Part shown: piece by piece, positions 38,700-59,182 of the stretch
How positions within the stretch are numbered: the first letter of the stretch is position 1
Layout of the letters: each line of letters starts with the position of its first letter
Assembly: GCA_934131175.1 (NCBI GenBank)
Contig: CAKOZD010000004.1
Span: forward strand, 17,507-81,506
Length of the DNA stretch: 64,000 bases
Direction of reading: 5' to 3'
Source: an uncultured Bacilli bacterium
GTDB taxonomy: Bacteria > Bacillota_I > Bacilli_A > RF39 > UBA660
The notes under the pieces: model-generated
Databases searched by the model: none
The model's input: only the letters and a program-made list of their open reading frames with translations
What the model was told of the DNA's origin: nothing
Made by a program: the position numbers and the translations under genes

Positions 38700-39860
38700 T
38701 CACTCTTCTTTCTTATTTAACTCATCTATATTTATACCACTTATGTCAAAATAGGATGTTATATTTTCTTCTGCAACAATAAACACTTCTATATCTATTT
38801 TACTATTATTTATACTATTTTTCAAAATTTTTTTATCTAGTATATGTTCATCTTTTTTTAGACCTTCTTTAACTTTATTTTCAGCAAGCATTAAAGCCTT
38901 TTTTTCTATTTCTTTTTTTGATAATTGTTGCTCTTTTCTATTTATTTCTAGATATTTAGATAAGCTAATTTCCATTGGAACTAATTTACTTCCTACTATA
39001 TTATACTTTTTTATTTTATATTCACTGAATTTATTTCCTAATTTATATTCTTTATTTAATATTTTTATATAAAAACCTGTTTTCTCATTTGATGTATAAA
39101 TTGTATTTAGTGTAGTATTTTCTAGTGATAGTTTTACTTTATACCATGTTTTTCCATAAATAAGTCCTTTAGCACAAACTTTTGTTTTAACAGTTTCTTT
39201 ATTATGAATTAGGCCACTTACAATAGTTTCTCCTGCTACTACATAATCATTTTTCTTTTTTATTATTTCTCCATTTTCTACATTTATCTTAGTAATTACT
39301 GCATTCTTTTTGGAAACAATATTTCTTGGAAGACACTCATCTTCTTTTTCTTTTACTTTTCTTTCTTCTACTTTAATAACATACTTTGTCCCTATTCTTT
39401 CTATTTCTAACCATTCAATATCTTTATTTTCCAATAATTTTTCTTTTATATTATTTACTTTATTATCACTTAAGACAAAATTGTATTTTTTTATTCCAAG
39501 GTCTGTTAATTCTTCTTTTATTTCTTTTACTAGTTTCTTATTATGATTTATTACTTCTACTTTAAATATAATATGAGATAGAAAGATATTTATAAAAATT
39601 GCGAATAAAAAAAAGAAAAGTAATAATCTATATTTATTAAATAAATATTTTAATTTACTTACTCCATATCTATTAATTATTTTTACTTTAGAAGTTGTTT
39701 TTATTTTCTTTACTTTTTTATAATCCTTATAGTCAATTATTATTTCTAATTTATTATGAGATTTTACAAGATCATATATATTAATTTTTCTTCGTATTAA
39801 TTCTTTAAAGAAATAATTTGTGTATTTTCCTGTTACTTCTATTTTTATTCTATCAATCAT
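38700..39860 (-). CDS. yqfD: Sporulation protein YqfD
   Basis: Strong similarity pattern to Bacillus YqfD (LPRNIVSKKNAVITKINVENGE; GKTWYKVKLS...). Single TM helix. Follows yqfC. Confidence 0.8.
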   Translation of the reverse strand: MIDRIKIEVTGKYTNYFFKELIRRKINIYDLVKSHNKLEIIIDYKDYKKVKKIKTTSKVKIINRYGVSKLKYLFNKYRLLLFFFLFAIFINIFLSHIIFKVEVINHNKKLVKEIKEELTDLGIKKYNFVLSDNKVNNIKEKLLENKDIEWLEIERIGTKYVIKVEERKVKEKEDECLPRNIVSKKNAVITKINVENGEIIKKKNDYVVAGETIVSGLIHNKETVKTKVCAKGLIYGKTWYKVKLSLENTTLNTIYTSNEKTGFYIKILNKEYKLGNKFSEYKIKKYNIVGSKLVPMEISLSKYLEINRKEQQLSKKEIEKKALMLAENKVKEGLKKDEHILDKKILKNSINNSKIDIEVFIVAEENITSYFDISGINIDELNKKEE

Positions 39861-40092
39861 TTACTACCTCTAAACTAGTTACTTCTCCATTTAATAATAG
39901 TTCATTGTCTAATAGTTTTTTTAGTATTAATTTTTTTCCTTTTATTATTATTTTTTTATTATTTATGTATAGTGATACATAGTTATCTTCTATTGTGATT
40001 AATCTTGTATAGTTTATTATATCTATTAAATTGTCCTCATATATTAGTTTAAATTTCTTATCATCAATATAATTATTTAATCTATCTAGCAT
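39853..40092 (-). CDS. yqfC: Sporulation protein YqfC
   Basis: IIKGKKLILKKLLDNELLLNGEVTSLEV matches the YqfC C-terminal pattern. Overlaps the yqfD start. The start codon is uncertain (40092 or 40137). Confidence 0.65.
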   Translation of the reverse strand: MLDRLNNYIDDKKFKLIYEDNLIDIINYTRLITIEDNYVSLYINNKKIIIKGKKLILKKLLDNELLLNGEVTSLEVVND

Positions 40093-40148
40093 ATTATTCA
40101 CCAGTAAATTATATGTTTTAAGGCAAAAAAAAAGCATTAATTTGCTTT

Positions 40149-40586
40149 TTATTGTAATTTTTCTCTTATGATTGTTGATACTTCTTTCATATCAGCTTTA
40201 CCTTTTAATTTAGCTTGGGCTTCTTTCATAACTTTTCCCATGTCTTTTTGACTTTCTGGTTTTACTTCTTCAAAAATTTCATTAATTATTTTTTCTACTT
40301 CTTCTTTTGATAATTGTTCTGGTAAATATGCCATTAAAACATCGATTTCTTTTTGTGTTTTTTCTACTAGATCAGTTCTATTTCCTTTTTCAAATTCTGT
40401 AATAGAATCTTTTCTCATTTTTATTTGTTTGTTTACAACATCAATTAATAAATCATCGTTAATTTCTTTTTTATGATCTATTTGTTCTTGTTTTAGGGCT
40501 GCTTTTACCATTCTAATTACAACAAGTCTGTCTTTGTCTTTTGACTTCATTGCTTCTATCATGTCTTTATCTAATTTTTCTACCAT
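40149..40586 (-). CDS. yqeY: GatB/YqeY domain protein
   Basis: MVEKLDKDMIEAMKSKDKDRLVVIRMVKAALKQ. aaggag SD before the internal ATG. Conserved position after rpsU. Confidence 0.8.
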   Translation of the reverse strand: MVEKLDKDMIEAMKSKDKDRLVVIRMVKAALKQEQIDHKKEINDDLLIDVVNKQIKMRKDSITEFEKGNRTDLVEKTQKEIDVLMAYLPEQLSKEEVEKIINEIFEEVKPESQKDMGKVMKEAQAKLKGKADMKEVSTIIREKLQ

Positions 40587-41413: not shown

Positions 41414-41810
41414 CCCATATCAATTTAAATATGTTTATTAAACTCTCCTTTTTATTCTTAAATACTATTTTTAATACATCATTTGTTTTAGAATTATTAA
41501 ATTTAAAACTAATTAGAACTTCATTATATTTTTCTCTACCTTTAGTTATAATTACATCGTTATCTTCAAGAATTTTATATTTTTTTAATTTATTTTCTAA
41601 ATATAGACTAGAATTTTTATATAGAATATTTTTTTCTTTTTTATTTATTATTAATAGACATATATTTTTATTAGTAACTATACAATCATATTTTTTATAA
41701 TTATATATTTTATAATTTTTAAGTACTAGAAAGAATATTATTTCCATAAGAAATACTATTAATATTAATAATTTTGGAATAGTTAAATTCTCATAACTTT
41801 TTTTGTTCAT
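41397..41810 (-). CDS. Small membrane-anchored protein (putative bacteriocin accessory or immunity component)
   Basis: N-terminal TM helix. Translationally coupled to the upstream ABC exporter (20-nt overlap) and to the downstream peptide A. Confidence 0.4.
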   Translation of the reverse strand: MNKKSYENLTIPKLLILIVFLMEIIFFLVLKNYKIYNYKKYDCIVTNKNICLLIINKKEKNILYKNSSLYLENKLKKYKILEDNDVIITKGREKYNEVLISFKFNNSKTNDVLKIVFKNKKESLINIFKLIWDGDNN

Positions 41811-43872
41811 ATATTTGTCCTTTTTCTAATTTTAATACTCTATCAAATAACTTTTTATTATTGAAGCGATGAGAAATTACAATAACTGTTTTATCTTGTA
41901 AGTATAAAAACATGGATTCTAGAATTTTCTTTTCTCTAGTTATATCAATTTGACCTAGAGCCTCATCAAAAATATAAATATTAGTTTTTCTTAATAAGTT
42001 CCTTGCAAGTATTATCCTTTGTCGTTCTCCATTACTGAAATTAAATCCATTTTCTTCAATCAACTTATTAATTCCTAAATCACTATCTTTGATAATATCA
42101 TTTATATTACAAATTTCTATTATTTTTTCTAATTCTTCTTCATTATATTCTTTGTATAAAGTAATATTATTTTTTATTGTGTCATTAAATAAATATTCTG
42201 AGCTAGTAGTATAAGTAATATTTGATCTTATGCTTTCTAAATGATAGTGATTAATATCTATACCAGCAATTTTTACGGTATCATAATTAGTTTCAATATA
42301 CTTTAAAAGCATTTTCATAAGAGTTGATTTTCCACTACCACTAGAACCACTAAGTAATATTTTTTCACCTTTTCTTATTGTTAAATTTAGATTTTTAAAA
42401 AGATACTTAGAACCATTCTTATAAGTTAAATTATTATAAATAATGTCTCCATCTAACTTATAATTTAGATAAAAATAACTATTTTTAAAATACTCTTCTT
42501 CTAATATAAATAATTCTTCTACTCTTTCTTTTGCAGATACAAAGTCAGGGTATTCTTCTATAAGAGAGAAAATACTGTAAAAATTATTTAATAAGTAATT
42601 AGTAAATGCTTGAAAAATTATTAAATTAGATAAAGTTAATTTATTTGTTATACATAAATATGTTCCTATAGAATATATAATTATTATTGATATTTCATTT
42701 AAATTATTTTTTATATTGGAAGTGATTTCCAATAGTATTTTATAAGAATTAACAGTGTTTAGAAGTGATGTGTATTTTAAATTAAACTTATCTATTAATC
42801 TTTTTTCTAAATGACTTCCTTTAATAGTGTCTACATTACTTATTCCTTCAATTAAATAGTTATTAATAATATCTTGATGTTTATTTATTTTTCTAATATA
42901 TTTCTTCTTTCTTTTTACAATAAGGGACTCAAATATTATAGTTATTATAAATATTAATATAATTATACTTGTTAGTTCTTTTGAATATTTAAATAAGATA
43001 ATAAAAAAAGTTATTATACAAAAAATATCAGTAATTAGACTTGTAAAGATATTACTTAAATAATATCTTACAGTGTTTAAGTCTTTAAATCGTGCTAGTA
43101 CTTCGCCAGATGTTCTATTTTTGTAATATAAATATGGAAGTAAAAGTATCTGCTCAAATGTTTTAGATGTCGTATTTAAATCTAATTTAGAAAACCAACT
43201 ATTTAATAATATATTTTTTAGTAGAATATTAATATTTTTAAAAATCGTAAGTATTAGTAAAATGATAGTTATATAAAGAATATTATTACTTAAACTTATA
43301 TTTATAGAGTATTCTAAAAAGTATTTAAAATTGTAAGATGTGAGTATATTTTCTATTAGATATATGATTGTTAAAAGTGTAATGGTAATGTATGTTTTTT
43401 TATTACTTTTTATACTTTCTTTTATAAGTTTTGTAATAATTTTATTTTTCTTTATTACAGGTAATGTTTTATAGGGTTTTAAGAATAAATAATTATTACT
43501 AGTTAGTAAATTAAATTCAGAAAAAGATATTATTTTCTTTCCTTTAGCAGGATCCATTATTGTTACTTTCTTACTTTTTTTATTTATTTCATATAAAACA
43601 ACAAAGTGTTGGTAATTCTTATTTACAATAAAATGAACGATACATGGTAAGTTATTTACATTTATATTTTCTATTTTTCCGCTCATTCCTTGGCTTTCAA
43701 ATCCTATAACTTTGCTTGCTTCTAATAAGTTATATAAAGTAACTCCATCTTTTGTAGTGTTTGTTAGTTCTCTTAAATATTCCTTAGATACTTCTCCTCC
43801 ATAAAATCTAATAATAGATAAGAGACAGCAAATACCACAATCTTTTATTCCGTCCTGCATGACAATTTTCAT
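41791..43872 (-). CDS. Bacteriocin-processing ABC transporter with an N-terminal C39 peptidase domain (ComA/LagD/SunT family)
   Basis: C39 motifs (DCGICCL with the catalytic Cys; HFVVL). Six-TM domain. Walker A LSGSSGSGKSTLMK, ABC signature FSNGERQR, Walker B IYIFDEALGQID. Confidence 0.9.
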   Translation of the reverse strand: MKIVMQDGIKDCGICCLLSIIRFYGGEVSKEYLRELTNTTKDGVTLYNLLEASKVIGFESQGMSGKIENINVNNLPCIVHFIVNKNYQHFVVLYEINKKSKKVTIMDPAKGKKIISFSEFNLLTSNNYLFLKPYKTLPVIKKNKIITKLIKESIKSNKKTYITITLLTIIYLIENILTSYNFKYFLEYSINISLSNNILYITIILLILTIFKNINILLKNILLNSWFSKLDLNTTSKTFEQILLLPYLYYKNRTSGEVLARFKDLNTVRYYLSNIFTSLITDIFCIITFFIILFKYSKELTSIIILIFIITIIFESLIVKRKKKYIRKINKHQDIINNYLIEGISNVDTIKGSHLEKRLIDKFNLKYTSLLNTVNSYKILLEITSNIKNNLNEISIIIIYSIGTYLCITNKLTLSNLIIFQAFTNYLLNNFYSIFSLIEEYPDFVSAKERVEELFILEEEYFKNSYFYLNYKLDGDIIYNNLTYKNGSKYLFKNLNLTIRKGEKILLSGSSGSGKSTLMKMLLKYIETNYDTVKIAGIDINHYHLESIRSNITYTTSSEYLFNDTIKNNITLYKEYNEEELEKIIEICNINDIIKDSDLGINKLIEENGFNFSNGERQRIILARNLLRKTNIYIFDEALGQIDITREKKILESMFLYLQDKTVIVISHRFNNKKLFDRVLKLEKGQIYEQKKL

Positions 43873-44751: not shown

Positions 44752-44780
44752 AAAATAAAAACGTTGAATTAATCAACGTT
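44752..44780 (-). terminator. Terminator downstream of tRNA-Ala
   Basis: aacgttga-attaa-tcaacgtt palindrome, followed on the minus strand by tttttatttttt. Confidence 0.55.
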
Positions 44781-44791
44781 GAATATCAATA

Positions 44792-44867
44792 TGGTGGAGC
44801 ATAGCGGGATCGAACCGCTGACCTCCACGGTGCAAACGTGGCGCTCTCCCAGCTGAGCTAATGCCCC
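44792..44867 (-). tRNA. tRNA-Ala (anticodon TGC)
   Basis: Minus-strand sequence GGGGCATTAGCTCAGCTGGGAGAGCGCCACGTTTGCACCGTGGAGGTCAGCGGTTCGATCCCGCTATGCTCCACCA. Cloverleaf with G3:U70, a TGC anticodon, and a CCA end. Confidence 0.9.
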
Positions 44868-44933
44868 ATACTTAATTTTTTTTATCTCTTTCACAAGCGA
44901 CAAATTGATTATAGCATAGTAATTTTTAAAAAG

Positions 44934-45686
44934 TCAACGATTTTTGTAAAAAAAATTATATTTTTTTTCTAAAGCTTCTTTTTCAGTATAAAAAGTACCA
45001 TTTTCTTTATAAATATTCTCTTTATTTTTATAGAAGTTATTAATATTATAAATTATTTTTTTATTCTTAAAGTGATATTTATTTAAAAATCTTTCTAATA
45101 AAAATTTATTATATACATAATCTATTTTATTTTCTTCTTTATGAATTACTGCTAATAGGAATAATAACATTACTAAAATATTAATTGTAATATTTTTTTG
45201 AATTATAAAAATTATAAATACTAATAAATAACTAATCTTAATGATTAATTTTAATGTTTTCTTATATGGTAGAAAGTTATTTATAAATAAGTTTAATAGT
45301 TTTCCTCCATCTAATGGATATATTGGTAATAAGTTAAATACTAAAAGAGATATGTGATAAATTAATATTAATTCTTTATCATAAGGAAATAAATAAATTA
45401 AAATAAAGTAAGCAAGATTTTGAAATGAAGGACCTGCTATTAGTATTAAAAACTCAACAGTATTTTTTGTATTTAATGGCATATTAAATTTAGTTATTCC
45501 ACCTAGTGGATAAATATATATTTTTTTTACATCTACTTTTAATAATTTTGCGACTAAGAAATGACCTAATTCATGAATTATGATTATTATATTTAATATT
45601 AAATATTCTTTAAATGAACCTATTAATATCGCAATTATTCCTAAGATATAAACTAATATGTTTACTTTAAATATATTTTTTATAAT
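44934..45686 (-). CDS. M50-family site-2 protease (SpoIVFB-like), with the N-terminal HExxH segment in an ORF lacking an ATG/GTG/TTG start
   Basis: The in-frame extension upstream of the track ORF encodes a TM helix with IIIHELGHFLVAKLL (HExxH). The track ORF supplies NLLPIYPLDGG (LDG motif). The frame opens at an ATT codon 9 nt after a GGAG, immediately after a TAG, and overlaps the upstream gene's end. Confidence 0.55.
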   Translation of the reverse strand: MIKNIFKVNILVYILGIIAILIGSFKEYLILNIIIIIHELGHFLVAKLLKVDVKKIYIYPLGGITKFNMPLNTKNTVEFLILIAGPSFQNLAYFILIYLFPYDKELILIYHISLLVFNLLPIYPLDGGKLLNLFINNFLPYKKTLKLIIKISYLLVFIIFIIQKNITINILVMLLFLLAVIHKEENKIDYVYNKFLLERFLNKYHFKNKKIIYNINNFYKNKENIYKENGTFYTEKEALEKKYNFFYKNR

Positions 45687-46233
45687 CTAATTGTTCTCCA
45701 TTCTTTTCAAATTTTAAATATAATTCATTTGATTTTACTTCTCCTAACACTTGTCCTTTTTCTACATAATCATATAGTTTGTAATTACTTATATTTACAT
45801 TTATATAATAAGTATCAACTCCATCTACTTGTTCTACAATAATTGTTTGCATATTATCTTTTACTCCACTGTAGACAATTATTCCACTTTCTAATATTGG
45901 TACTAAATAATTATTATCTACTATTAGTTTTACTCCATTATTATAATTAGATGACTTTTTATAAGATAATTTTTCACTAAATACCGGTGTTTCTTCTTTT
46001 ACTACTTTATCTAGAGATAAAATCTTACCGAAATACTTCTCATAAATACTTTTTGTTTTAGTAAACTTTATATTTTTTTCGTATACTTCTTTTTCTATAT
46101 CTTTCTTTAGAGTGGGATTTTTCTTTGTTACTATTAATCCTATTAGAAATATTATAATTAAAATAAATAATTTACTTAAAAATATCTTTATACTTTTCTT
46201 TAATACTAATTTTTCTTCTATTCTTTTATTCAT
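45667..46233 (-). CDS. Membrane protein with a degenerate LytM/M23-like C-terminal domain (SpoIVFA-like)
   Basis: N-terminal TM helix. C-terminal GIIVYSG...YINVNISNYKLYDYVEKGQVLGEV follows the M23 fold pattern without the catalytic His residues. It sits directly upstream of, and overlaps, the M50 protease, as spoIVFA does with spoIVFB. Confidence 0.45.
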   Translation of the reverse strand: MNKRIEEKLVLKKSIKIFLSKLFILIIIFLIGLIVTKKNPTLKKDIEKEVYEKNIKFTKTKSIYEKYFGKILSLDKVVKEETPVFSEKLSYKKSSNYNNGVKLIVDNNYLVPILESGIIVYSGVKDNMQTIIVEQVDGVDTYYINVNISNYKLYDYVEKGQVLGEVKSNELYLKFEKNGEQLDYKKYI

Positions 46234-48852: not shown

Positions 48853-51033
48853 CTATTTTTTACTTTTTGTTTGTAAATATGTTGCGACTATTATTATTCC
48901 AAGTCCTACTATTAGTAAGTATAACCAAGCAGGAATAGATGACCAAATATCTCTTAATTGAACTAATATATTTATTATTGTTAATATTATTCCAAAAATA
49001 AATAATTTATTAAAATCATTATTTTTATAACCAATGATTATTAGAGAAAGAGAAATTAGTCCTACATAAATTAAAATAGTTAATTTATTTAAGAAAAATA
49101 TTCCCGTCATAGTTAATGATATTAATACACCTATAATAATTGTTAGTACTTTAGATGATGATTCTTTACATAAAAATTCTTGTATTAAATAAGTTATATA
49201 AAGTATTAAAATACTTGTTGAAATAGTTGATACTTCTATACTTAAATCTTTTAAATATATTAATTTAAGTATTGGGAGTATTATAAAGAAGTAGCTTGCT
49301 ATTTTCATTTTTCTTTCTCTACTAACAATTATAATTACTATTAAAATCCAAATAAATAATAGTGTTGGTAAATATGGATTATCTATTAGTAGTCCTTGAC
49401 AACATATTGGTATAAATATACTAATTAAGAAAGTTATATATATTGGTAGTTTTGGATATTTTTCTTTATAAGTGACACTTATTGCTAGTAAGACGCTGTT
49501 TATTAAAATTAATATTACTGCACTTATTAGGCTTTCATCTATAATATTTGTAATTATTGATAGCATTATAAGTATACATGAATAACTAGAGTATGTTTTT
49601 TTGTTATTTGTAATTATTGATAGTAAAGTGTAAATTGCACTTATTATTATAAACATAGTTAAAACTGTTATGTTTTTTGATGTTATTTCTTCTATTATTC
49701 CTATTAAAGATAATACTCCCATAAATATTAATGGTGGATTAACTGAATTTTCAAATGGTAATTTAGAAATACTTAAAATGTTATTTTTACTTAGTATATT
49801 TAAAAGAACTATTACTAATGGAATTATTATTGCTTGAAATGGTTCATTAAATACTTTTATGTAGCAAGATAATGATAATATTAAATATACTATATATGAT
49901 ATATTTTTACTTCTTTCATCTGTTGTGAAGAAATCAACTTCTATTAATATAATATAAAGTGTTAGACAAATATATTTTATTATTTCTGGTAAGTTAGTTA
50001 TATTTAGTCCTATATTTATTAAAATAAAAATAATTAATAGATTAACATATCCTAATTTTTCATATTTCTTTACTAAATATGTCATATTTATAATATTAAT
50101 TATAGAACATATTAATAGAGATATCTCATTTATTTCTGAATTATTAAATTTAATAATATAAGCAATTATTATGTATGATGATAATTTACTTATAAAGTTT
50201 AGTACTGAGTCTTCTTTTGTTACTATATTCATAAAGAATATTAGCATTGATATTAGAGTTATTATTGTAATTATATCTAGTGTTAAAAAACTTAGAATAT
50301 TATAAATAGAAATTAATACTGAAATAAATGATATTTGTAGTAAGTAACTTTTGTTATATTTTAAATATGTTATATATGTAAATATTCCAATTAGTAAGTA
50401 TGTTATAAAATAAGAAATATGAGAACCATTTCCTCTATATGTTAGAAAACTACCAAATATACCAAAATATTGTAATCCAACTATTGTTAATACTAAGAAA
50501 GCAAGTCCTAGTATCCAATAGATATAAGATGTTTTATATAATTTTAGTTTTAATTCTGTAAATACTGATAAGCCTAAAAATATAATTGATAGAATTATTA
50601 AAAGACATATTTTTAACATATCTGGTATTATTTGCCATGATGTTGTTGCGAATAATATACCTGATATTAAAACCATTCCTACTCCTAATTTTAGAAGTAA
50701 GTCTATTTTTTTAGATTCTTCATCTTCTTTTATTGGAGGAGCATTTATTCCATTTACTTTTCTTTCGTATTCTGAAAGTTTTGAGCAAAAGACAAATATT
50801 AATATTGATGAAATAAATAGAAATGGTATATTAATAATTCCTGCTATTATTAATAATCTTTTATTATTAATTAAATCTAGTCCTTTTAAAAATGATACTG
50901 ATAGACAAATTATGCCTATTATTAAAACTGTTAAACCATAAATGTAGTGTTCACTTACTAGTCCTAGAGTTCCTGCTAATAAGTTTAATGCTCCTGCTAC
51001 TTGAATGGTTGATTTTTCTTTTTCTATACTCAT
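48853..51033 (-). CDS. Large polytopic integral membrane protein of unknown function (about 20 predicted TM helices)
   Basis: 726 aa, almost entirely hydrophobic helices. No recognisable transporter motif. Confidence 0.55.
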   Translation of the reverse strand: MSIEKEKSTIQVAGALNLLAGTLGLVSEHYIYGLTVLIIGIICLSVSFLKGLDLINNKRLLIIAGIINIPFLFISSILIFVFCSKLSEYERKVNGINAPPIKEDEESKKIDLLLKLGVGMVLISGILFATTSWQIIPDMLKICLLIILSIIFLGLSVFTELKLKLYKTSYIYWILGLAFLVLTIVGLQYFGIFGSFLTYRGNGSHISYFITYLLIGIFTYITYLKYNKSYLLQISFISVLISIYNILSFLTLDIITIITLISMLIFFMNIVTKEDSVLNFISKLSSYIIIAYIIKFNNSEINEISLLICSIINIINMTYLVKKYEKLGYVNLLIIFILINIGLNITNLPEIIKYICLTLYIILIEVDFFTTDERSKNISYIVYLILSLSCYIKVFNEPFQAIIIPLVIVLLNILSKNNILSISKLPFENSVNPPLIFMGVLSLIGIIEEITSKNITVLTMFIIISAIYTLLSIITNNKKTYSSYSCILIMLSIITNIIDESLISAVILILINSVLLAISVTYKEKYPKLPIYITFLISIFIPICCQGLLIDNPYLPTLLFIWILIVIIIVSRERKMKIASYFFIILPILKLIYLKDLSIEVSTISTSILILYITYLIQEFLCKESSSKVLTIIIGVLISLTMTGIFFLNKLTILIYVGLISLSLIIIGYKNNDFNKLFIFGIILTIINILVQLRDIWSSIPAWLYLLIVGLGIIIVATYLQTKSKK

Positions 51034-52516: not shown

Positions 52517-52767
52517 TCCCAGAAAGTGCATGAATTTAGAAAAGATTTATTTAAATTTGCTACAATATTTATACTTTTCATAAAATCACCTCTTTTTGTG
52601 TTGATAATACTTATATCAAATTTAGAAATTAAAGTCAATGAGATAATCTATAATTTTTTGTTATATTTATATAAGTTATTTTTATTATGTATGTTTTTGT
52701 AAAGTGTTTTTTCTTTAATTTACTGGTAAAATTATGCGTGATATAATAATTTTGGAGGATAAATAAT

Positions 52768-53370
52768 ATGGCAATGATGAAAAATTATGAAGTAACATCT
52801 GGTGGTGGTCCTACCTTTAATAAACCTGCTTGTAGTGTTTCATATCCTTATAGTAGTGACACTAAAAATGCCGCTGATATTTCTAGTGTATGGGATTATA
52901 TAGATGGTATTTTATCAAATATTAGTTCTCTTTCTAATGATTTTGAAAGTATTAAAAGTAAAATTAAGAGTTTAGAAGACAACTGGAATAATTGTATTAT
53001 AATGAATGGAACTGGTACTGAGTATGTTTATGTCGATGATATAAATAGTGATATAACTAACTTTTCTTCTAAATGTGAAAGTGGTAAAGGTGAAGTTGAT
53101 GGAATATTTAGTGAATTTAGTGAAACAATAACTGAGATTAATGAGTATATGGATTTATTAAAAGAAAATTATCAATCTTATAAAAATCTTCAAAATAATC
53201 TTATTAGTGCATCATCTGAATTATCTGCTTTATCCATTTCTAATAATAATTCGATAAGTGCAACTAGAATAAGTGCTTTGAATTCAACTATTGCTAGTTT
53301 AAAGAATAAGATGAAAGATTACCAAGAAATTACTAGTATTGATTCATGTGGAAAGTGGGTTGAAAAATAA
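52768..53370 (+). CDS. Hypothetical helical protein (200 aa), first gene of a plus-strand islet
   Basis: Strong ggagg SD. S/N-rich sequence with coiled-coil character. No signal peptide. Confidence 0.5.
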   Translation: MAMMKNYEVTSGGGPTFNKPACSVSYPYSSDTKNAADISSVWDYIDGILSNISSLSNDFESIKSKIKSLEDNWNNCIIMNGTGTEYVYVDDINSDITNFSSKCESGKGEVDGIFSEFSETITEINEYMDLLKENYQSYKNLQNNLISASSELSALSISNNNSISATRISALNSTIASLKNKMKDYQEITSIDSCGKWVEK

Positions 53371-54692
53371 TGGCTGATAGTTTTAGTGTTAGTTATGATG
53401 AGAAGTTATATACTGCAGGAGAAAATGATTATAATAATATTAAAAGTTCACTTTCTACTATGATGGCTGATGTTAAAAATTACACTGATAAACTAAAAGA
53501 AATTGAAGGCTTTACTCCTTCTATTGTTTATGGTGGCGTATTACAAGATATGGTTGAAGGGATGAGTACTGCTTTAAGTAATTTAAGTGAAAAACTTGAA
53601 GTTAGTAGTACTATTGTTTCTAGAGCAAAACATATTGTTGAATTATATAATAATTCTGATTCTGATATGTCTGCTGATGTATGTAAATTTTTATTAGATA
53701 ATTTGAAAATGACTTATAAAAATAGTTTTGATTCTAATTTTAAAAATGGTACTGCATTAAAAACAGATCTTTATTATCAAGCAATTTTTGATAATGATTT
53801 CACCCCTCAAGGTATAACAATTGTCGGGAATAAAGTTATAATTTCTGCTTATAAAAAAGATGAATATTCAAGACTTTATATTTTTAATCCAGATAATAAT
53901 AGTTACTATATTGTTGGTCTTGATAATAAATCTCATGTTGGTGGAGTTAGTTATGATGAAGTAAATCATGTTTTATTAGTAACTGGTAGTAATGGTGCAG
54001 TAAATGCATATAACTATGATGCCATGGAGTCAATTGCTAGTAAGAGTACAAGTGAAAGTTATAATGGTAAAACTGTTATTTTAAATTTAGCGAATAATGC
54101 TGGTACAAAACAAAAAATAAAATTAGATTCTAATATTAATATGAATTATGAAAAAATGGCAAATGGAAATAAATTAACTGGTTATAATGCTGGGTCTGTT
54201 TATGTTGATACCAAGTCTAACCAAATATTTATTAATAGATTTGCAAAAGATGGAAAACTAGTTTATGGTGATTTAGTTTATGATAAAGATAAAGGAACAT
54301 ATACTATGAAGAATCCAAAGTCTATGGATATAGATAATGGGGTTCAAGGAGTTGCAACTTACCATAAAGATGGAAATACATATTTGGTAGAATCAAGGTC
54401 TTACGCTGGAACTAGTTCTCAAATAACTGTTAGAAATATTACTAATGGTAAAAATATTCTTGTTGGTACTAAAAAGTTCGATAATAAATATATGGAAAGT
54501 ATTCATGTAGACGAAAATGGAATTGGAACAGCAGTTTATGAAAATGGTACATTTAATCCATTTAATAAAAATGATTCTACAAGGTCATTTGATGTTAATG
54601 AGATAATTAAAGAAAATAATAAAGAAAGTGGAAATGTTATTATTATAACTAATAAATTTGAAAAAGGTGAACCTAATAAAGAAGGTTATTAA
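53370..54692 (+). CDS. Hypothetical 440-aa protein (helical N-terminal region plus a beta-rich C-terminal domain)
   Basis: Start overlaps the upstream stop (taATGg). No signal peptide. No recognised catalytic motif. Confidence 0.5.
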   Translation: MADSFSVSYDEKLYTAGENDYNNIKSSLSTMMADVKNYTDKLKEIEGFTPSIVYGGVLQDMVEGMSTALSNLSEKLEVSSTIVSRAKHIVELYNNSDSDMSADVCKFLLDNLKMTYKNSFDSNFKNGTALKTDLYYQAIFDNDFTPQGITIVGNKVIISAYKKDEYSRLYIFNPDNNSYYIVGLDNKSHVGGVSYDEVNHVLLVTGSNGAVNAYNYDAMESIASKSTSESYNGKTVILNLANNAGTKQKIKLDSNINMNYEKMANGNKLTGYNAGSVYVDTKSNQIFINRFAKDGKLVYGDLVYDKDKGTYTMKNPKSMDIDNGVQGVATYHKDGNTYLVESRSYAGTSSQITVRNITNGKNILVGTKKFDNKYMESIHVDENGIGTAVYENGTFNPFNKNDSTRSFDVNEIIKENNKESGNVIIITNKFEKGEPNKEGY

Positions 54693-54706
54693 GTTGGAGG
54701 AAAACT

Positions 54707-55258
54707 ATGAGAATAAGTAATTTTAAAAATTATGTCGATTGGAAAAATATTAAGAAAAAGTTTGCTTTAGTTGCTATTTCTGTTGCTATTGGTTCTATGG
54801 CCACTGGATGTAATCAGAATATAAATAGTCAAGATGTAAATAATAATAGTATTTATCAACAATTAAATGAAGAAAAATTAGATTCTAACACAACTGATAT
54901 AAATGATCGTGCTGATTATTATGAGAAGTATGTGGATGATAAAATAGATAAAATGTCTGAATCTGAAAAACTTAATTATTATGTAAATATTAAAGTAAAT
55001 TATAGTGGCAGAGAAAATTATAGTGGTGATGATATAATTTTTTTAAGAAATGACAATGTATATGAAGGAGATTTATATGATGGTGATGACTCTATTGGAC
55101 TACCTCCTGGTATATATAGAGTTATTTCTGAAAAAGTTGATGGACATCAAAGTAATTTTGGAGAAATTAGTATACTTACACCTGGAGAAGATGTTACTTT
55201 GAATGTTGATTATAATTCTTATAAAGCAAGTATTTCTAGTGATGAAAAGACAAAATAA
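54707..55258 (+). CDS. Putative lipoprotein
   Basis: ggagg SD. Signal peptide with a lipobox, ...AISVAIGSMATGC. D/Y/E-rich mature part. Confidence 0.55.
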   Translation: MRISNFKNYVDWKNIKKKFALVAISVAIGSMATGCNQNINSQDVNNNSIYQQLNEEKLDSNTTDINDRADYYEKYVDDKIDKMSESEKLNYYVNIKVNYSGRENYSGDDIIFLRNDNVYEGDLYDGDDSIGLPPGIYRVISEKVDGHQSNFGEISILTPGEDVTLNVDYNSYKASISSDEKTK

Positions 55259-55843: not shown

Positions 55844-58800
55844 TTATTTATTTAGTTTTATGTATTTTTTTACAAAGTCTGTATCTATTTTTGACATTGA
55901 TTCTTCTAATATTATCGGAAGATTTAAGTCATAGGCTTCATTTAAAAGTATCAGTTGAGCAAGACTTATTGACTCATATTTTCTTGCTAGTAAACTATCA
56001 AAATGTTCTTTGGTAATTATATCTTTTACTTGATACTCTCCACTATTTCCTGTTCCTCTTATTGGGTAACTTGTGTATCTAAAGTCATTTATTATTTCTT
56101 GTGGTAATATCAATTTTGTATCGTCAAATATTTGCATATTGTCATCTAAAATTATCGTTCCTGTTCTTTTGTAACTTTCATACACACTAGATGCAACTTT
56201 CGCAATACAAATGTAATGTGAACCATTTGTCCCAGCTCCACCTTGGTGATTACCATAATTTGAAGATGTAATTGCTCCATCTCTAAATACTGAATTTAAG
56301 TTTTCCATAGAACCTGTTGTATGAGAATAGTATGTATTAGGTATTTTATAATCGTGATTATTCAGAGTTTTTAAGTATTCCTCTATTTCTTGTTTATTAA
56401 TAGAGATGTTTCTTCTATCTAAAATATTTTCTATTTTATACTTTGGAATATAAATACTTTTTTTATTTTCTTTTATTTTTTCTTTTTCTTTTACATATTT
56501 TTTAGCCTCAGAAAATAATCTTTTATCGTTATCATTATAGAAAAAGTCAAAGCTATTATCTTTTTTTCTTCCTATAAACCAATCTTCTCCAATATAACCT
56601 GATTTATATTTATTTTCTAAGTAATGATATTTTATACTATTTTGCAAGCAATAATCATAGTATATAGAGTTTATTCTTTCTTCTAAAGTATCTTCATCTA
56701 TATCTTTAAATTCTTGTACTTTAGGTCTTTCATATAAATATATTGGCTCTACGTCATCTGTATCTAATTTATCACTATACTCTCCATATAATATTACTTG
56801 ATTTTCACTAGAATCTTTTAGATAAAGTTCTTCTTTGCTACTTGGTTTAAACATATTATTACTTAGACTTTTCAAAGGTTTTAGATTGTCTATATATTTA
56901 TTTTTTATATCTATTGGGTTTCTTCCTATAAGTACTAATTTTATTCCTTTATTTTTTTCTTGACGAGTTATTTCTGTTATTGTTTTAGCTGCTTGTAAGT
57001 ATATTTCATATATTGCTAATTCAGGGTCTTTTACTTTTTCTATTTCTTCTGTTAACTCAATATTGTCAAAGCAAAGTACGTCTCCACATCTCCATACCCA
57101 GCTATAAGCAACTATTTTTCCATTTCTTGTAATTTTAAAGAATCTTCCATTAGGATTTATTGCTCCATGGCGAAGACAAGTTTGTGCCTTACCATTTGGA
57201 GTTAGACAACTTGATGCTTTTTTATTATCAGGCAATAGATATTTTCCAATACCATTAGATATTATTTCTTTATCATGTAAATCAACTAATTGATAGTCTA
57301 AGTTATTATATTTACCACGACAATCTGGAATAGATGATTTTAGTCTTTTTCGATATTCTTCATAAAGTTTTATTCCATTTAATTTTTCTAAGAAAGGTTC
57401 TCCTTTTGCAACATAGTTTAATCTTTCTAGGTTTTCTTCAATGTGAACATTATATGGAACAAGTAATTTCTTTATTGATTTGATTACTTTATTAATATTA
57501 TTTAAAGTAGGCTTTTTCCCACTTACTAGTATTTTTTCAAATACAGAGATATAAGTTTCTAGTGAATAGTCTTCTAATATTTTATTCTTGTCTTCTTCTT
57601 TTAAATTTAGAATTAATTCTTTAAATGCTATATAAAAAGTATCAGACTTACCTTTTATATTATCAATTATTCCTTTCCAAGTATTAATATTATATTTTAT
57701 AAGTTTTACTGTTGCATCATAATCTAATAAATCTAAGGAAATTAATATGTATTCGTCAAGTTTATTATTTACTGATTTATCTATTAGCATGTGAGTATAA
57801 GACTTTAGAGCCTCATCAATGAAAATTTTTTTATTAGATTTTTCAATCACAATATTATTTACTATTTCTTTTATATTTCTATATTGCTTTACACTATACT
57901 TTTCTATACTATTTATATTTACCATTTCTGGATATTGTAATAAGTCATTTGTTTTATAATTATGGATTAAATTTTTTCTGTTTTTTATGTCTAATATTTT
58001 ATATATATTTTTATTTTGAATACCTCTTCTAAATATTCTTTCTAAATATTCTAAATCTTTATTTGTTAAAGTATCCTCATACTCTTTTAGAAATTCTTGT
58101 AAAAATAATTTAAAGCATAATAAAAACAAATAATTTTTCTTATTGTCATTATATGTTTCTTCTGATAAATGATTTATTGCGATTAAGTACTCATAACAAT
58201 AAATTGTATCTATTTTGTTTACATTTATTTTTTCTATATTAAAATTAGTTATATTATTTTCTTCTAGAAATTTTAAAAATGAATCTTGAAATGGTTTTAT
58301 CTTTTTAGGAGAGTCTTTAAAAGTAGGTTCTTCTTTTGTAATGATTTTTTTAAATATTTCTTTATTCTTAAGCAGTTTAATCCAAGTAGCTTTTGTTAGA
58401 CGATTTGTTAATTTTATGTTGTTTAATTCACTTGTTTTTAGTACATGTAATAAATCATCTACTTCATAGTTATTTTTTAAACAATTTTGAATTATGTTAA
58501 ATAAAGTAGCCTTATCTGTTTCAATCATTTGTCTATAATCAAATTTTTCTATCTTACCATATATATAATACTTTAAATCATCTTTAAAATATTTGTAAAA
58601 AATTTTTAATACATAGGGATTAACTTCACTCATTTTTGCTTCATAGTGCTTATCTTTATAGCGTGGTTTTACTTCCCATTCATTTATTTCCCAAATATCT
58701 GATAATTCATCAATATATCTAGATGGAACATAAAGAGTCTTTCTAATTTCTTTTCTTAATTTTTTATAGCTTCTCTTTATGATTTTTTCACATATATCAG

Positions 58801-59182
58801 GATTTTCCATATTCATACATAAATAAGCCAATTCTTCAGAAGACAATTTATCTTCGTATAATGTAAATATTTTATTAAAATAATTTTTTATTATATCTTC
58901 TTTAGTTATTCCATTAAAGCCCATTTTTATTCTATTTTTAATAGGTGAAAATTTATGTCTTTCTATATTAGTTTTTAAGTCAATAAAATAAAGAATATCT
59001 AAAAGTATTAATCTTATTCTTTCTGATGATAAGTCTGGTTTTTCATTAATTATTCTATCTAATTTATCAAGATATTTCTTATCTGGAACGTCTGTTTCTG
59101 AATATAATGTTGTTAGATAGTCTACAAACATCCCTTCTCTTTCAAATAGTCTTTCATCAAACATGTCTAGCAAAGATAACAC
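55844..59182 (-). CDS. Large (1112 aa) soluble protein of unknown function
   Basis: Long uninterrupted ORF with no TM helix. No P-loop, HExxH or other motif I can assign. The C-terminal region is Gly/Ser-rich (NYGNHQGGAGTNGSHY). Confidence 0.55.
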   Translation of the reverse strand: MLSLLDMFDERLFEREGMFVDYLTTLYSETDVPDKKYLDKLDRIINEKPDLSSERIRLILLDILYFIDLKTNIERHKFSPIKNRIKMGFNGITKEDIIKNYFNKIFTLYEDKLSSEELAYLCMNMENPDICEKIIKRSYKKLRKEIRKTLYVPSRYIDELSDIWEINEWEVKPRYKDKHYEAKMSEVNPYVLKIFYKYFKDDLKYYIYGKIEKFDYRQMIETDKATLFNIIQNCLKNNYEVDDLLHVLKTSELNNIKLTNRLTKATWIKLLKNKEIFKKIITKEEPTFKDSPKKIKPFQDSFLKFLEENNITNFNIEKINVNKIDTIYCYEYLIAINHLSEETYNDNKKNYLFLLCFKLFLQEFLKEYEDTLTNKDLEYLERIFRRGIQNKNIYKILDIKNRKNLIHNYKTNDLLQYPEMVNINSIEKYSVKQYRNIKEIVNNIVIEKSNKKIFIDEALKSYTHMLIDKSVNNKLDEYILISLDLLDYDATVKLIKYNINTWKGIIDNIKGKSDTFYIAFKELILNLKEEDKNKILEDYSLETYISVFEKILVSGKKPTLNNINKVIKSIKKLLVPYNVHIEENLERLNYVAKGEPFLEKLNGIKLYEEYRKRLKSSIPDCRGKYNNLDYQLVDLHDKEIISNGIGKYLLPDNKKASSCLTPNGKAQTCLRHGAINPNGRFFKITRNGKIVAYSWVWRCGDVLCFDNIELTEEIEKVKDPELAIYEIYLQAAKTITEITRQEKNKGIKLVLIGRNPIDIKNKYIDNLKPLKSLSNNMFKPSSKEELYLKDSSENQVILYGEYSDKLDTDDVEPIYLYERPKVQEFKDIDEDTLEERINSIYYDYCLQNSIKYHYLENKYKSGYIGEDWFIGRKKDNSFDFFYNDNDKRLFSEAKKYVKEKEKIKENKKSIYIPKYKIENILDRRNISINKQEIEEYLKTLNNHDYKIPNTYYSHTTGSMENLNSVFRDGAITSSNYGNHQGGAGTNGSHYICIAKVASSVYESYKRTGTIILDDNMQIFDDTKLILPQEIINDFRYTSYPIRGTGNSGEYQVKDIITKEHFDSLLARKYESISLAQLILLNEAYDLNLPIILEESMSKIDTDFVKKYIKLNK

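Follow-up and report, generated by a model that had tools for sequence, protein, structure and literature searches.

The stretch of DNA analysed here, called the window below, comprises 64,000 nucleotides (nt) of contig CAKOZD010000004.1 (GenBank assembly GCA_934131175.1, positions 17,507 to 81,506 of the forward strand) from an uncultured Bacilli bacterium of the RF39 lineage, and the subject of this work is a gene within it for a SpoIVFB-like M50 protease that has no canonical start codon ahead of its catalytic motif. The full frame occupies positions 44934-45686 of the minus strand, with 250 codons and a TGA stop at 44936-44934, and its first codon follows an in-frame TAG (45687-45689, minus) made by the TTA-GAT (Leu-Asp) codons of the gene upstream. 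It opens with ATT (45686-45684) followed by ATA (45683-45681), the proposed near-cognate initiation codons (together 45681-45686, minus). The upstream gene, at 45667-46233 on the same strand, encodes a putative partner protein of 188 amino acids (aa), and its 3′ end holds a Shine-Dalgarno (SD)-like element, AAGAAUGGAGA, at 45695-45705 (minus), with a computed anti-SD duplex of -10.3 kcal/mol and a spacing of 8 nt to ATT.

The protease gene and its overlapping partner

When the minus-strand frame is read, the first ATG, GTG or TTG is the ATG at 45482 (45480-45482), codon 69, which is the start chosen by gene callers and gives a 182-aa fragment without HExxH. The 68 codons ahead of this Met69 begin IIKNIFKVNILVYILGIIAILIGSFKEYLILNIIIIIHELGHFLVAKLL, and ATG, GTG and TTG are all missing from them. 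Within them, 5′ of the sole canonical start, lies the zinc-binding and catalytic HELGH motif at codons 38-42 (45561-45575, minus), whose residues H38, E39 and H42 do not vary in alignment A1; the NLLPIYPLDGG motif with the third zinc ligand, Asp, was read from the translated frame at residues 118-128 (45303-45335, minus). An original prediction, made from the letters alone, had described an open reading frame (ORF) carrying only NLLPIYPLDGG, HExxH in frame 5′ of it, a 68-codon extension without ATG, GTG or TTG, and an opening ATT-ATA right after TAG with a GGAG 9 nt before it, and coordinates and frame reading agree with all of this, the GGAG lying at 45699-45696, 9 nt 5′ of ATT. Unmentioned there was a four-codon mini-ORF, ATG GAG AAC AAT TAG (MENN*), in the same frame and just 5′ of it, whose ATG (45699-45701, minus) arises incidentally from AAT-GGA in the upstream gene and is dispensable. 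At local composition, 68 codons without a canonical start would arise with P ~0.07, and 37 stop-free codons with P ~0.03 per locus, stops being expected at ~9% per codon; chance is a weak explanation for a long start-less open frame. Among the ~50 minus-strand genes of the window, this is the sole case in which the first canonical start lies deep within the ORF.

The upstream gene was expected to encode a transmembrane (TM) protein with a degenerate M23/LytM domain and to have its stop inside the protease frame, and both expectations were borne out. The 188-aa product has one hydrophobic segment, a candidate TM helix, and an M23/LytM-like domain (PF01551, E=3.1e-7), and it contains zero His residues; because no histidine is available to bind the catalytic zinc, the M23-like protein is catalytically dead. 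No SpoIVFA-specific model matched it, and a sequence search of the PDB with the protein gave no match. Its TAA stop at 45669-45667 produces a 20-nt overlap with the M50 frame (45667-45686), and the same order, M23 then M50, is found in loci L002, L083, L084 and L086 and in Bacillus locus L088. Across loci the 3′ codons of the upstream gene read ...K-D/N-G-K-Y-L-D-Y-K-D-Y-I*, in which TTA+GAT yields the TAG of the M50 frame and GAT-GGx or AAT-GGA yields the mini-ORF ATG.

HExxH, NLLPIYPLDGG and a match to PF02163 together identify the predicted protein as an M50/site-2 protease. PF02163 matched the extended protein with E=2.3e-19, above the cut-off, in two stretches from both halves of the model, compared with 5e-7 and only the C-terminal part for the 182-aa ORF alone. 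A phmmer comparison with SpoIVFB (PDB 8VJL) gave E=2e-26 over residues 8-206, with query residue 8 at chain residue 13, and the extension aligned with TM1-TM2 of the B. subtilis protein. An AlphaFold2 (AF2) model of the 250 aa reached a pLDDT (predicted local distance difference test) of 90.6 and shows six TM helices, and a Foldseek search with it placed 8VJL at the top with a template-modelling score of 0.84 over 266 columns, compared with 0.56 for MjS2P, the site-2 protease of M. jannaschii. As modelled, the protein is a full-length SpoIVFB homologue, an ordinary member of the family with a shortened C-terminal domain. No CBS domain (PF00571) matched at E<=0.1 and the protein is 38 aa shorter than SpoIVFB (250 vs 288 aa); AF2 places a small alpha/beta C-terminal domain at residues 209-248, which superposes on part of the C-terminal domain of SpoIVFB. 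Residues ~186-250 (44934-45130, minus) are themselves conserved, with the pattern YNKFLLERYL...NFYRN..H.IK....YY.E.

With one genome taken for each GTDB species, a scan recovered 80 loci with 34-97% identity, 81 with the window, and these bear directly on whether the gene has decayed, that is, whether it is a pseudogene or yields only a product from Met69 without the HExxH helix, its open frame a relic. Such decay would fit the lack of a canonical start before Met69 in the window and the 182-203-aa products, starting after HExxH, that gene callers and NCBI give. It is nevertheless very unlikely: the M50 frame is open in 81/81 loci despite the stops expected per codon, HExxH is present in 81/81 and in most is preceded by exactly 37 or 40 open codons, and TM1/TM2 residues are kept down to 37% identity. 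In close species pairs the non-overlapping part of the extension shows purifying selection, with dN/dS of 0.08-0.3; a calculation over all species pairs (median 0.76, many values >1) was set aside, synonymous sites being saturated and AT-biased and only dS < ~0.25 usable. The original prediction had also offered a sequencing error or a recent pseudogenising change as explanations, and neither holds, the first because the TAG-ATT-ATA junction recurs in the independently assembled contigs L001, L002 and L003, the exact 182-aa product being called on at least seven long contigs and many further 182-aa variants falling in its 90% cluster, and the second because the start-less arrangement is found in 67/81 loci, down to ~37% identity, with ORFs intact and catalytic motifs kept. 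Because a Met69 product would miss two zinc ligands, the start of translation must fall within the ~8-11 codons that separate the stop from TM1, where AUU and AUA are the only start-like codons.

Conservation of the start slot and its Shine-Dalgarno element

In the 67 loci of the stop class, TAG, TAA or TGA stands directly 5′ of a conserved x-I-K N-terminus; in 61 of them the first 12 codons, which precede TM1, include no canonical start, and in 16 no such codon occurs at any point ahead of HExxH. Codon 1 reads ATT in 52, ACT in seven and AAT in four of these loci, codon 2 is ATA, ATC or ATT in every one (67/67), and relative to codon 1 the stop of the upstream gene is fixed, at +17 in 48 loci and at +20 in 19. 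The genomes scanned include Ca. Faecimonas, which has been placed in order RF39 (PMC8035907). Initiation that depends on termination-reinitiation from the MENN* mini-ORF was rejected, as just 34/67 loci have its ATG, and L003, at 97% identity to the window, has ACG instead.

The original prediction had proposed searching orthologs for an in-frame canonical start, and such starts do exist in a minority, though not in most loci. Nine loci have TTG at codon -1, from an upstream Leu codon CTT or similar, in place of the stop, and these fall in at least five places of a neighbour-joining ordering, interleaved with stop-bearing loci; the same slot therefore toggles between canonical start and stop. 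Other relatives have ATG at codon 2 (L083), TTG at codon 5 (L084) or ATG at codon 5 (L031). Few of the 80 species show the single A-to-G change that would turn codon 2 or codon 5 into ATG, and the tail of the partner would be altered only mildly by it.

Two biases in the upstream frame were also recorded at the slot. The stop arises from a Leu codon, which is TTA or CTA in 61/68 loci (L003-L082), compared with 70% expected (binomial P=1.4e-4, uncorrected for phylogeny), an excess that could be a sign of the stop being favoured in its own right. The two Tyr codons are TAT and not TAC in 79/79 and 74/75 cases, a significant bias that was discarded as evidence on the start codon, since it would look the same whether the codon served as a start, the protease required Ile or the partner required Tyr.

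A strong codon bias marks a Gly codon of the upstream frame that lies 11-13 nt before codon 1. Among 77 loci it is GGG in 38, GGA in 34, GGT in five and GGC in none, against a Gly background in the same loci of 9% GGG, 47% GGA, 37% GGT and 7% GGC, so that GGG and GGA together account for 72/77 vs 56% expected. The Lys codon after it is AAG in 29/41 vs a 20% background. Because this stretch is not protease-coding where the stop is present, the Gly and Lys codon bias points to selection on the RNA itself. Pairing with the anti-SD, computed over the 18 nt 5′ of codon 1, has a median of -8.15 kcal/mol across loci vs -9.1 at 322 ordinary gene starts and -2.4 at random coding positions; it thus matches real starts in strength and greatly exceeds the coding background. 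The aligned spacing from SD to codon 1 is 7 nt in 37/74 loci and 8 nt in 18/74, and the real ATG genes of the same loci (n=220) have a mode of 7 and a usual range of 4-10. Codon -1 lies 4-5 nt, codon 2 10-11 nt and codon 5 19 nt from the SD, which puts codons -1, 1 and 2 in the initiation window, and in three of the five loci with AAT or AGT at codon 1 the SD lies 3 nt from codon 1, so that codon 2 is at 6 nt. A promoter scan of the locus gave matches no commoner than in shuffles, and no terminator was found between mreD, the M23-like gene and the M50 gene.

The position of codon 5 raises the question of coupled translation, which had also been proposed originally: ribosomes ending at TAA 45669-45667 would restart at the AUA of codon 5 (45674-45672) through an 8-nt overlap, with no need of an SD. 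The geometry equals the 8-nt start/stop overlap of Bacillus, TTGAATAA, the upstream stop keeps its fixed distances from codon 1, and codon 5 is ATG in L031, TTG in L084 and AUH in 60/67 loci. Codon 5 is, however, TTA, AAT or ACA in five loci, the overlap geometry shifts where the stop is at +20, and synonymous selection for an SD that lies 7-8 nt from codon 1 and 19 nt from codon 5 is left unexplained. As the route to the protease, reinitiation at codon 5 is unlikely; coupling survives as a possible contributor that may add to SD-directed initiation, leaving both the SD and the codon-5 variants to be explained otherwise.

A +1 frameshift or transcriptional slippage within the 20-nt overlap, for example at TAT-AAA-AAA, could in principle fuse the M23-like protein to the protease, as a +1 shift leads from the upstream frame into the M50 frame and ~60/80 loci have AAA-A or AAA-G, which permit re-pairing of Lys-tRNA. 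This is about as improbable as decay of the gene. The site is CAA in 13 loci, no slippery-plus-pause motif is conserved, an Rfam scan found no element besides tRNA, and PF01551 and PF02163 occur together in 0/120 of the best homologues; the SD and its spacing would also go unexplained. The C-terminus of SpoIVFA is extracytoplasmic and the N-terminus of SpoIVFB cytoplasmic, so that, given this topology and the six-TM AF2 model, a fusion would be expected to invert the protease.

Proposed near-cognate initiation and its relation to known systems

The reading preferred here, with a probability of roughly 0.78, is that the gene is an intact and expressed SpoIVFB orthologue, probably translated by SD-directed initiation from the near-cognate AUU at 45686 and/or the AUA at 45683. 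Non-AUG initiation of this kind had been one of four explanations in the original prediction, and the comparison of loci leaves it as the best supported of them, with an SD at the right spacing. From the observed conservation, ribosome-binding site and spacing we infer that AUU or AUA is actually used as a start. In the proposed mechanism, the SD in the last codons of the overlapping SpoIVFA-like gene would steer the ribosome to the start slot, where initiation with formylmethionine (fMet) at AUU (codon 1) and/or AUA (codon 2) would give the full-length protease at low efficiency. The slot is without a canonical codon in most species of the clade, preceded by a stop that comes from the upstream Leu-Asp codons, and in a few lineages the preceding codon is TTG, able to serve as a normal start. 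A weak start could thus hold the protease sub-stoichiometric to its partner, with an output that is possibly sensitive to initiation factor 3 (IF3).

Several considerations weigh against SD-directed AUU/AUA initiation. Codon 1 is ACT, AAT, AGT, CTT or GTT in 14/67 loci (TTG in one), and since it differs in these 14 loci AUU is not a universal start, the AUA at 10-nt spacing being sub-optimal. Constraint on the overlapping frame (Asp-Tyr-Lys), or a requirement of the protease for Ile, could also account for the conservation of ATT-ATA and is not cleanly separable from a start role. The species are related by descent, so that binomial P values overstate independence, and all compared loci come from metagenome-assembled genomes labelled Bacilli, Mollicutes, Tenericutes and similar. 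The anti-SD was assumed to be of the Bacillus type, the window holding no 16S 3′ end, and the real genes of the loci calibrate well under this assumption. Support for AUU/AUA initiation is comparative sequence throughout.

The closest comparison is with spoIVFA-spoIVFB of the B. subtilis group (8VJL/8VJM), and the analogy drawn with this pair in the original prediction was sound, SpoIVFB being the best solved homologue by both sequence and fold and the Bacillus pair overlapping in a like manner. Both genes encode an M50 protease with HExxH in TM2, NxxPxxxLDG and a six-TM fold, lie directly 3′ of and overlap a gene for a TM plus M23/LytM protein, and have an SD within that gene and a start codon weaker than ATG. 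In a genome of the B. subtilis group (L088), spoIVFB starts with TTG in an 8-nt overlap (TTGAATAA), its SD, AGGTGAT, lying inside spoIVFA. The window gene differs in having no canonical codon, a stop directly 5′ and a 20-nt overlap, and its product differs in length (250 vs 288 aa) and in the lack of a CBS domain detected by Pfam. Judged from these sequences, the operon seems in general to be marked by a weak start inside the partner gene, and the RF39-type clade has gone one step further. The neighbourhoods are also alike, radC-mreC-mreD lying upstream of the pair in the window, as had been predicted, with no mreB or minCD between mreD and the pair, unlike the order in B. subtilis, radC-mreBCD-minCD-spoIVFAB.

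Initiation at AUU or AUA is known from other genes. In E. coli the output from such near-cognate starts is 1-2% of that from AUG (10.1101/063800) and, with a strong SD, it is ~10% in S. aureus, and infC, ccpN and cvfC1 use conserved AUU/AUA starts in S. aureus and B. subtilis (PMC13009471). The window gene resembles infC and pcnB of E. coli and infC, ccpN and cvfC1 of S. aureus and B. subtilis in its conserved near-cognate start and well-placed SD, and attenuated, IF3-sensitive initiation would be expected by analogy. It differs in that those starts were shown by Ribo-Ret or reporters and this one is known from comparative sequence, and in the position of its start, which lies in a dual-coding overlap, after an in-frame stop and in a slot that alternates with TTG among lineages. 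It likewise resembles coupled overlaps of the ATGA or TTGAATAA type in having its start within the upstream 3′ end and the upstream stop at a fixed position relative to the start; those overlaps are of 1-8 nt, unlike the 20-23 nt here, and the restart codon here would be non-canonical. No description of AUU/AUA initiation for spoIVFB or for RF39-type lineages was found in the literature searched, by which measure AUU/AUA initiation would be new for spoIVFB in the RF39-type clade.

A wider proposal can be put forward tentatively, and it may well prove wrong: in RF39-type gut Bacilli, SpoIVFB would be obligatorily AUU/AUA-initiated at a slot that is defined by the SD and not by the codon and is dual-coded with the C-terminus of the partner gene, the weak start being selected and the stop perhaps favoured. 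If true, the protease would be made well below the level of its inhibitory partner, with an IF3- or growth-state-dependent output, adding a translational layer to the pro-sigma-K checkpoint. SpoIVFB cleaves pro-sigma-K in sporulation under regulation by BofA and SpoIVB, and its dosage relative to its inhibitor matters in Bacillus. The stop+AUU, TTG and ATG variants would form a natural series on start-codon strength versus protease-to-partner stoichiometry, and the case would add a regulated intramembrane protease to the genes with conserved AUU/AUA starts, beyond infC, pcnB, ccpN and cvfC1.

Gene calls and neighbouring features

Database entries for the protease suggest a further explanation, reassignment or read-through of the stop, in which translation would start at ATG 45701 and TAG would be read as an amino acid. 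Entry P0001 (95% identical, from a cluster of 241) begins MENNQIIKNIFK, reading MENNQIIK..., and NCBI entry MDD6402562 (MKRTENNWIIK...) reads TGA as Trp. The contig from which P0001 derives, L001, nevertheless has TAG at the codon in question and does not give P0001 under the standard code, so the Q in P0001 is evidently a gene-calling artefact. TGA is taken for Trp in the entries with W, in the 207-aa members and in a 324-aa homologue, the latter two continuing past the true stop and into the tRNA-Ala gene; by species the position is TAG, TAA or TGA, and the ATG is missing in half of the loci. Because TAA, TAG and TGA all end long ORFs in the window, TAG and TGA many of them, and never interrupt any, the standard code applies, and read-through is barely credible. 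The same stop usage rules out genetic code 4 and TAG recoding, and a MENNQ start with an ancestral ATG at 45701 and a CAG-to-TAG nonsense change was excluded by the TAG in L001. Wrong-code calls for the gene were noted in P0001, P0122, P0124/P0127 and P0084 (loci L001 and L003).

Gene callers limited to ATG, GTG and TTG reduce the protease to a fragment without the catalytic HExxH, and others wrongly invoke code 4 or TAG as Gln. Of the 120 best homologues in the database, roughly one in three lacks the HExxH part, one NCBI entry being named "hypothetical protein", and the shortened products of gene callers and NCBI are about 180-205 aa long and start after HExxH. Such miscalls can distort inferences on gene content. 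Reduced presence or absence of spoIVFB has been reported in the related order ML615J-28 (PMC10868615), an example of an inference open to such miscalling, any effect on it being only a possibility. SpoIVFB calls in Bacillaceae (P0159, P0186 and P0208) are 254-269 aa long vs 288 and start inside TM1 or TM2, a hint that difficulties in calling its start extend beyond the RF39-type clade.

Other features of the window touch on sporulation. A homologue of YqfD, a stage IV sporulation protein, is encoded at 38700-39860 (minus; Pfam E=1e-66), and its presence means that this AT-rich, "Mollicutes-like" organism keeps sporulation genes; a 112-codon ORF just 5′ of it (39853-40191) could be a candidate yqfC. 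RF39 has been predicted to sporulate (PMC10868615), and radC-mreC-mreD, the gene pair and YqfD fit a sporulation-related locus.

At the 3′ end of the protease gene, a near-consensus promoter at 44908-44937 (minus) combines TTGACT, an 18-nt spacer and a TG-extended TATAAT, with 11/12 matches, and overlaps the TGA stop of the protease. It is followed by a tRNA-Ala(TGC) gene at 44792-44867 (minus) and then by a terminator-like hairpin at 44760-44780 (minus). Judged from these elements, the tRNA seems to be transcribed from a promoter of its own that lies within the 3′ end of the protease gene. Farther away, a C39-peptidase ABC exporter of the bacteriocin type lies at 41791-43872 (minus), downstream of a Ham1-like gene, and the corresponding exporter in L002 has the domains PF03412, PF00664 and PF00005. 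Two large minus-strand genes, for a 726-aa protein with many hydrophobic segments (48853-51033) and a 1112-aa protein (55844-59182), had no Pfam match at E<=0.001. The segment 52001-56000 has the only positive GC skew, +0.19 vs about -0.2 elsewhere, and matches the only plus-strand gene block, at 52750-55258.

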